In this document: positions 7,605 to 8,843 of the stretch, in pieces
Layout of the letters: each line of letters opens with the position of its first letter
Numbering within the stretch: position 1 is the stretch's first letter
DNA from: Candidatus Aenigmatarchaeota archaeon
GTDB lineage: Archaea > Aenigmatarchaeota > Aenigmatarchaeia > Aenigmatarchaeales > DAIDAN01
Assembly: GCA_027310605.1 (NCBI GenBank)
Contig: DAIDAN010000001.1
Coordinates: forward strand, 1-29,146
Reading direction: 5' to 3'
DNA: 29,146 nucleotides
Translations under genes and position numbers: made by a program
Notes under the pieces: model-generated
What the model was told of the DNA's origin: nothing
Databases searched by the model: none
Seen by the model: the letters and a program-made list of their open reading frames with translations, nothing else

Positions 7605-8843
7605 ATGCGAGCAGTGAAAGACAGGCTGTACGGGAAAATAAGAATCGAGAAGCCGGTGCAGGATATTTTGCGCTGCGAAAAAATCCAAAGGCTCGGAAAA
7701 GTTTCCCTTTCCGCGGTTCCGGACAGGTTTCTCGTGCCGCGATATTTCAAGGATATGGCAAGCAGGCTGGAGCACTCGATAGGGATGAGCCATCTTGTTT
7801 CCGTGCTTTGCGGCTTCAGGCCCGAGTTCGAGGAATATCGCAATCTGCTCCTGCTTGCGGCGGTCTGCCATGACGCCGGGGCGCCGCCCTTCTCGCACAA
7901 CGGCGAGTACCTGCTTGGGGAGCTGACAGGCATGAACCACGAGCGGTATACTGAACATATCCTGAAAGGTTCGGTCGCAGCGGATGTTATAAAAAAATAC
8001 GGATACCCGCTCAGGCAGATAACTGAAATAATAAACGGAGGCTCCGGTTTTTTAGGCAAGCTGATGAACAACACCGTAGACTTGGACAACGCTGACAACA
8101 CGGAAAGGTACGGCTTCGGTTCTGGGATTGTCGGCAGGATTTCGGACCCGGAAGAGCTTGCCAAGGCTTTCCTGCTTAAAAACGGCGGACTGTTTCTCGA
8201 CAGAAAATATTCTGCGGAATTGGAAAAATGGAAACTTTGCAGGAAAAAAGTCTACGGAAAAATAGTTTACGGCGATGCCAACATCTCGGCGGGAGGAATG
8301 CTGCGCCGCGCTCTCGGTTTCGTTTACGAGGAAAATGGAAAAGCTCTTAAGAAGGAAGGTTTTCTGGAATTCAACGATAATGAGGCGCTGAAATATATGG
8401 AGGAAAACAGCCCCGAAGCCAGGGCGCTGATAGAAAGCGCAGAGAGCGGAATCTTTTACAGGAAGGTCGCGGAGATAAGCTCGTTCAATCCGTCCGCGAA
8501 AATGGAAGAGCTGTGCGGGAATTGGAGCGGAAGAATCGGTATCGCGGACGGCATCTGCGAAAAATTCGGGCTGCGGAGGCAGGATGTATGCGCGCAGGCG
8601 TTCCGCCAAAAACCGGAAAGAAGCGCGGAAAATTTTTATCCGCAAAAGAAAAAATCCGAGAAAAAGAAATGGGGAACCGCACGAAAATCCAGCGGGATTT
8701 TCGGCGCAGCCGGAAACTCCGTTTCCGTGCGCGTTGGGGGCGAAGCCCCCCGATTTGACATGAGGGTTTTCGTCAATCCGCGGCTGCGGATAAGCGCGAA
8801 GAATGTGCTGAAATTTCTGTTGGAAATAACGGATATGCAATGA
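7605..8843 (+). CDS. HD-superfamily phosphohydrolase (dNTPase/YdhJ-like)
   Basis: IQRLGKV, SRLEHSIG, AAVCHDAGAPPFSH, DLDNAD...RY; carries an in-frame family A element near the C-terminus. Confidence 0.88.
   Translation: MRAVKDRLYGKIRIEKPVQDILRCEKIQRLGKVSLSAVPDRFLVPRYFKDMASRLEHSIGMSHLVSVLCGFRPEFEEYRNLLLLAAVCHDAGAPPFSHNGEYLLGELTGMNHERYTEHILKGSVAADVIKKYGYPLRQITEIINGGSGFLGKLMNNTVDLDNADNTERYGFGSGIVGRISDPEELAKAFLLKNGGLFLDRKYSAELEKWKLCRKKVYGKIVYGDANISAGGMLRRALGFVYEENGKALKKEGFLEFNDNEALKYMEENSPEARALIESAESGIFYRKVAEISSFNPSAKMEELCGNWSGRIGIADGICEKFGLRRQDVCAQAFRQKPERSAENFYPQKKKSEKKKWGTARKSSGIFGAAGNSVSVRVGGEAPRFDMRVFVNPRLRISAKNVLKFLLEITDMQ
8678..8731. repeat. Multi-hairpin element family A, copy 3 (54 nt, in-frame inside the HD CDS)
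   Basis: C-GCACG AAAATCC agcg GGATTTT CGGCgcaGCCG GAAAC tcc GTTTC CGTGC-G; translates within ...TARKSSGIFGAAGNSVSVR... Confidence 0.9.

Follow-up and report, generated by a model that had tools for sequence, protein, structure and literature searches.

A palindromic repeat nested in a second repeat, inserted in frame and probably translated in an HD phosphohydrolase gene of a DPANN archaeon

Introduction

A short palindromic repeat that lies within a gene and is read through without a stop codon raises the question of whether it is mobile DNA that has become translated as extra protein sequence or an intervening sequence that leaves the messenger before translation. The question is posed here by a gene for an HD-domain protein of a DPANN archaeon, located in a window of 29,146 nucleotides, by which is meant the whole stretch of DNA that was analysed. 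Archaeal bulge-helix-bulge (BHB) introns include rare mRNA introns, e.g. that in cbf5 of Crenarchaeota, and IS200/IS605-derived miniature elements are palindrome-associated transposable elements of haloarchaea and cyanobacteria. To our knowledge, palindromic selfish DNA placed in frame in protein-coding genes is textbook matter for Rickettsia only, and no report of in-frame palindromic elements in DPANN or other archaea was found in the literature searched. In the MITE review PMC10969869, the Rickettsia palindromic elements (RPEs; Ogata et al. 2000) are described as multicopy palindromic selfish DNA of ~100-150 bp, with a conserved peptide per family, which sits in frame in unrelated and often essential genes.

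An earlier note, made from the sequence of the window, had left two readings of a 54-nt repeat copy in the HD gene side by side: a tolerated, RPE-like peptide insertion and an mRNA intron whose retention is harmless.

The inserted block in the HD gene

The HD gene (Table 1) encodes a protein with a Pfam HD domain (E 3.5e-07). A profile made from the family of this protein finds PDB 2hek and 2q14 along with numerous SAMHD1 chains, and the protein is therefore regarded as a SAMHD1/dGTPase-like phosphohydrolase. Its HD residues are conserved in 15 orthologues, which are 56-68% identical to it, and by their database names the relatives are MAGs of Aenigmatarchaeota and Nanoarchaeota.

The 54-nt element reported in the earlier note is complete, in frame and free of stops, and the reading frame of the intact gene runs straight through it. 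The window contains no second occurrence of this exact sequence (shuffling predicts 0 matches), and the element scores 61.7 bits (E 4.5e-16) against the covariance model of its family, here named A, for which it was itself 1 of the 25 training rows. The element reads N-GCAC, a hairpin of 20 nt (8683-8702), a centre (8703-8711), a second hairpin of 15 nt (8712-8726) and GTGC-N; the closing stem pairs 8679-8682 with 8727-8730, and the central GGC-nnn-GCC of the family is here GGC-GCA-GCC. RNA folding of 8660-8750 gave the two hairpins of the element and a third just downstream (z = -2.9).

No segment aligned to the insert in any of the 15 orthologues (two congeneric ones of 387 aa, 63-64% identical to the HD protein, and 13 further ones), and an 18-residue counterpart in element-free orthologues, which the earlier note had named as the observation that would speak against an insertion, was thus seen in none of them. 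The linker from NFYP to FD[IM]RVF is 37 aa long in the HD protein versus 12-14 aa in most orthologues and 24 aa in four. The size of the event did need correction. A gain of 18 codons through a lone 54-nt insertion had been proposed, and while the A element is complete and its segment is missing from all orthologues, the surplus of the HD protein amounts to 23 codons, and the residues VGGEAPR downstream of the element are also inserted and belong to a second repeat, B. Alignment of the DNA with that of orthologues displays a sharp 3' junction right before TTTGAC, after 8753 and not after 8731, whereas the 5' edge of the block is uncertain by 1-2 nt (G). Since B flanks A, since a near-identical block of B and A lies on another contig (C123, see below) and since the 3' junction falls after 8753, the unit that entered the gene is best read as a composite of B and A of about 84 nt, spanning about 8671-8753.

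A hairpin with the arms GCGGA and TCCGC, to which the earlier note had also drawn attention, does exist upstream of the element, its arms being 8625-8629 and 8639-8643. It lies, however, inside the conserved coding part ending in NFYP, and when complementarity of these arms was sought in the DNA of orthologues it was absent, so that the hairpin is native coding sequence and part of no element.

Table 1. Features of the HD gene and its surroundings in the window
Feature	Position	Strand	Basis or remark
Host gene, HD-domain SAMHD1/dGTPase-like phosphohydrolase, 412 aa	7605..8843	+	Intact ORF; Pfam HD
Upstream hairpin GCGGA...TCCGC, native coding sequence (...AENFYP...), no element	8625..8643	+	Residues conserved in orthologues
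Entire insertion, repeat B with A inside it, about 83-84 nt, residues ~356-383	8671..8753	+	Absent from congener DNA
Left arm of repeat B, G-run and AAC	8671..8677	+	Empty B copies continue from AAC directly into CGTT, without A
Family A element, 54 nt	8678..8731	+	Sequence, covariance model, 25-copy alignment
Right arm of repeat B, which contains the hairpin GGGGGC-GAA-GCCCCC (8736-8750)	8732..8753	+	Shared with other B copies
Neighbouring intergenic family A copy, palindromic-centre subfamily	7446..7497	.	Context only

The sequence on either side of the block belongs to one HD gene, read in one frame and aligning co-linearly with the orthologues (357 aa upstream, 29 aa downstream), the contig is 29 kb long, and analogous in-frame copies occur in the independent assemblies G001 and G002. 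We therefore regard it as extremely improbable that the presence of the repeat in the HD gene is an error of metagenome assembly, an explanation to which the fragmentation of this MAG (178 contigs) and the presence of an A copy near the start of several contigs would lend themselves. The insert-bearing HD protein is known from a single contig in one assembly, which speaks for such an artefact and counts against the explanation preferred below.

Repeat family A

A structural scan of this genome (G000; 701,568 bases) found 61 simple copies of family A, 48-59 nt in length, and nested composites in addition to these. An alignment and the covariance model were built on 25 copies. The GCAC/GTGC feet are unchanged in all 25 rows, together with two inverted hairpin units, and the central GGC/GCC is invariant as well. 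Paired states make up 99.2% of the stem cells, and 9 pairs change on both sides; double changes were observed in 63 cells versus 15.8 in shuffles, and in slid controls the paired proportion fell to 30-51%. G-U pairs account for 2 of 500 stem cells, and each copy scores on both strands. Such near-pure Watson-Crick covariation along with scoring on both strands points to a palindrome of the DNA type and not to an RNA structure of one strand.

Two subfamilies can be told apart, one with an asymmetric centre and a 5' C (61 of 62 copies), the other with a palindromic centre and a 5' T (51 of 57). In a flank logo of 119 copies the first base alone is conserved (5' C or T; 3' A or C), within diffuse T-rich and A-rich flanks. 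With both strands counted, the covariance model matched 73-80 times in the congener G001 and 43-52 times in G002, corresponding to ~43 and ~27 loci, while it gave no match in the sister genus G003; of 38 further genomes of the order that were searched, 37 gave no match and the remaining one a single marginal match. Family A, genus-restricted in its abundance, is best explained as a non-autonomous palindromic mobile DNA element. An Rfam search over the window found no known RNA family that covers the element, and a tRNA at 3368-3507 was all that reached the threshold.

Contigs C3, C8, C32, C105, C131 and C170 of G000 each have an A copy some 290-340 nt in from their start. The assembly was probably broken at repeats, and the copy number is hence probably underestimated.

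Repeat B and the nesting of A in B

Repeat B consists of 30 nt, namely a G-run, AACC, GTT, the hairpin GGGGGC-GAA-GCCCCC and then CGA, and in the HD gene it is split into 7 nt before A and 22 nt after A. In G000 it is empty at C11, C137 and C171 and filled with A, exactly between AAC and CGTT, at C90, C119 and C123; all in all four B sites, including those of rpS9 and of the HD gene, hold an A copy at this same internal point. The block at G000:C123:19382-19463 is identical to that of the HD gene at 81 of 83 positions; it occupies the signal-peptide-like N-terminus of a different, pilin-like gene and is read there in a different frame.

Twelve copies of B at 10 independent sites were found across G000-G002. 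Copies were located at C11, C119, C137, C171 and C123 of G000, at C19, C13 and C46 of G001 and at C14, C56 and C99 of G002 (loci L093-L104). Every one of the 10 sites is within an ORF, and eight of these hosts have domains recognised by Pfam: rpS5, rpS9, ThrRS, ProRS, aRF1, a radical SAM protein, a DUF234 ATPase and the HD protein. The two hosts that Pfam did not match are the pilin-like gene and an ORF of unknown function. B is in sense orientation at all 10 sites and is read in the frame GGTVGGEAPR at 7 of them, and its positions in the proteins are terminal extensions or inter-domain linkers. ProRS and aRF1 of G000 are without B, which a congener has there.

Mode of insertion and the multiple-of-3 rule

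Comparison of filled and empty B copies shows that A enters as an exact block, N-GCAC...GTGC-N, with no duplication of the target. A copies also nest in each other. Among the classical MITE features, inverted termini are thus present, whereas target-site duplication is absent both in the filled/empty comparisons and in the nested copies.

Similar pairs are found in other conserved genes. GluRS of G001 carries 54 nt (18 aa) that are missing from G000, a second conserved gene (L054) has an A insert of 51 nt (17 aa), and PolB of G002 (L078, G002:C96:16827-18108) contains a nested in-frame pair of A copies, 34 aa in all, which follows the YGDS motif in an intein-like region and is absent from G000:C123:1177-2346. 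Three orthologous A copies in the pilin-like gene measure 54, 51 and 57 nt, and lengths of 51, 54 or 57 nt are likewise the only ones among the ~9 coding copies whose coding status is supported by homology or a very long ORF. The peptides that A copies encode are unrelated, and all three frames are used. A computational excision test, which is independent of the reading frame of the element itself, was applied to 119 copies (those of G000 and the fetched loci of G001 and G002), a long ORF being required to extend for 200 nt or more beyond the junction in both directions. Such an ORF was obtained for 13 of 64 copies with a length divisible by three and for 1 of 55 others (Fisher p=0.0015).

Two candidates for antisense coding copies were left out of the count, L052, where two adjacent genes are joined by a chance open frame, and L085, which has no homologue. 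The verified coding copies of A with an asymmetric centre are in sense orientation at 6 of 6 independent sites. The sense-only occurrence of these A copies and of B in genes is not predicted by random DNA insertion filtered by reading frame alone, and counts against the explanation that we prefer.

An orthologue from a Logan assembly (protein P0012) contains a 17-aa insert between the conserved motifs ...LACE and IRRL, and an N-terminal extension with ...NSVSV...; judged from the protein sequence, both segments look like translated two-hairpin elements.

Retention or removal from the RNA

The element is, like an archaeal BHB intron, a short structured insert in an archaeal gene, and the sense bias of the A and B coding copies would suit an intervening sequence, either the element or the whole B+A block, that is cut from mRNAs (and tRNAs) by the splicing endonuclease or another RNA-processing route, with retention being harmless and not the normal outcome. 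A further point in favour of such removal is a family A copy at 3434-3486, which interrupts the T-stem of a tRNA at 52/53, so that a functional tRNA would require its removal; it counts against the explanation preferred here, and it fits no BHB. BHB motifs, defined as helix-bulge-helix-bulge-helix with 3-nt bulges 4 bp apart, were searched for in 8620-8800 by a scripted scan with control introns. A relaxed BHB-like pairing does put the 5' cut exactly at 8677/8678, but it is 1 of 7 chance-level matches in 180 nt, has flanking helices of 2 bp and places its 3' cut within the element, by 3 nt. Under the strict geometry both ends fail, while the genuine intron at 37/38 of the tRNA-Gln in the window was recovered (flanking helices of 5 bp and 3 bp). 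Attempts to register a BHB by hand, on the tRNA copy as on the HD copy, also failed, and no match of the scan fits both ends.

Beyond geometry, A differs from BHB introns in that its stems avoid G-U and match both strands equally, its copies are mostly intergenic, and its coding copies are multiples of 3 and stop-free. Splicing would leave no reason for such a frame rule, which is why we consider the insert to be retained and translated. The intron reading of the earlier note has consequently been abandoned for the BHB type, and removal at the RNA level by whichever route appears quite unlikely.

The tRNA at 3368-3510 has a long variable arm and G73 (a serine-like body) but the anticodon GCG. 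It was recovered by Rfam and missed by ARAGORN, which reported no tRNA at all in the window.

The site in the protein

In an AF2 model of the HD protein (mean pLDDT 66.9, moderate), residues about 345-383 form a coil with a pLDDT of 24-36 between the strands 328-334 and 384-390. The model of an insert-free orthologue (mean pLDDT 71.0, moderate) has the same two strands with a 16-residue coil of low confidence between them. No solved structure covering the C-terminal part of the HD protein was found. The models place the insert in a predicted coil, and the linker loop may be seen as a permissive landing site.

HD orthologues from a JGI metagenome (L105:1001-2194, L106) have a different insert of 30 nt, or 10 codons, in the same linker, which holds a perfect 16-nt palindrome, GCCGCCG-TA-CGGCGGC. 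By its sequence, this suggests that the loop has been hit independently in another lineage.

Gains of other inserts in this loop by other lineages could also mean that the extra loop, or the hairpins in the mRNA, have acquired a function (e.g. as an interaction surface or a translational pause) and are kept by selection. Likewise, the restriction of B to genes, in one orientation and at 7 of 10 sites in one frame, could reflect selection on the peptide. Such exaptation is nevertheless very unlikely in our estimate: the insert is missing from all 15 orthologues, the two congeners included, the near-identical block on C123 uses another reading frame, disorder is predicted for the encoded peptide, and the copies of the family encode unrelated peptides in all three frames.

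Origin of the insert and relation to known elements

The explanation in which we have good confidence is that an RPE/REPIN-like element, inserted at the level of DNA, is translated into a disordered loop of the HD enzyme. An A element would have come to lie at the fixed point in B, and the B+A composite of ~84 nt would have been inserted, after the split of the lineage from the sequenced congeners, at the place where the HD gene codes for the disordered linker between two C-terminal beta strands. With a length that is a multiple of 3 and no stop, the block would be transcribed and translated as ~28 extra loop residues, which the enzyme would tolerate, and the insert would be selfish DNA at a permissive site, presumably neutral and without a function of its own. 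The tolerated, RPE-like peptide insertion envisaged in the earlier note is in this respect corroborated by the lack of the segment in orthologues, the essentially constant multiple-of-3, stop-free nature of the coding copies and the low-confidence coil at the site.

Compared with the RPEs, the likeness consists in in-frame, palindromic, multicopy inserts which are missing from orthologues in lineage-restricted, reduced genomes, and in an extra peptide at structurally permissive sites, which for family A is probably translated. The differences are that family A is 48-59 nt long, uses three frames and has hairpin tips that are hypervariable but always paired, that two families are nested here (A in B), and that the host is a DPANN archaeon. 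The resemblance would be one of phenomenon and not of a homology family, and a relationship in sequence is not to be expected.

In our analysis the outcome matches the RPEs, while the anatomy seems closer to REP/REPIN doublets. Family A shares with these a short hairpin with a conserved foot tetranucleotide (GCAC in A versus GTAG in REPs), an inverted symmetric doublet without target-site duplication, and tens to hundreds of copies, mostly intergenic, with nesting and clustering. Unlike REPs, which are extragenic by definition, family A is repeatedly found in coding sequence, and no repeat-flanked RAYT was found, a Y1 gene being present in one congener only and without flanking A. With IS200/IS605-derived elements it shares subterminal hairpins and the lack of terminal duplication, and strand-specific insertion of that kind could explain the sense bias. 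It may differ from them in its target, as the flank logo showed no conserved tetra- or pentanucleotide past the first flanking base, and it does differ in being far smaller (54 nt) and in that no tnpA was found in G000 (75% complete). The ends and hairpins would most resemble the products of single-strand, hairpin-guided transposition by HUH (Y1) enzymes, as in REP/REPIN-RAYT or IS200/IS605-derived systems. We propose this route because the ends are exact, no target is duplicated, the hairpins are of Watson-Crick pairs only, copies nest, also at a fixed point of B, and abundance is restricted to the genus.

A search with PF01797 (Y1/RAYT) found no such gene in G000 (75% complete as noted), G002 or G003. 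In G001 there is one gene for an IS200/IS605-type Y1 (HUH) transposase with HUH and Y motifs (L092:1456-1908, G001:C25), located between rpS2 and a methyltransferase gene and flanked by its own, unrelated hairpins. No A copy lies within 1.5 kb of it, and with these hairpins at its flanks it was rejected as the RAYT/IS200 driver of A.

What the simple model of insertion and translation leaves unexplained is that B is sense-only at 10 of 10 sites, 7 of them in one frame, that A has a sense bias in coding sequences, and that a copy sits in a tRNA T-stem. On account of these observations one may speculate that A and B act strand-specifically and that RNA or transcription is involved in how they spread or are removed, be it as a non-BHB intervening sequence excised from mRNA and tRNA or through entry into genes in the sense direction only; we hold this to be unlikely. 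The orientation bias could also be explained by replication-coupled, strand-specific insertion.

If the favoured reading of a translated DNA-level insertion is correct, the same outcome as that of the RPEs is now seen in a DPANN archaeon with a genome of <1 Mb, through elements that are much smaller and mutually nested. The core genes affected are those of GluRS, the PolB/intein region and the HD enzyme for A, and those of ProRS, ThrRS, the ribosomal proteins S5 and S9 and aRF1 for B. The multiple-of-3 rule of the genic copies argues for translation, and the filled/empty pairs may be regarded as natural experiments on loop insertion in essential proteins. In MAGs of this kind, extra peptides, fragmented assemblies and tRNA genes hidden from standard finders call for careful annotation.

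The neighbouring A copy upstream of the HD gene (Table 1) is flanked by a prefoldin-like gene on one side and, with 108 nt to the start codon, by the HD gene on the other. It could influence the promoter or the 5' end of the HD transcript.
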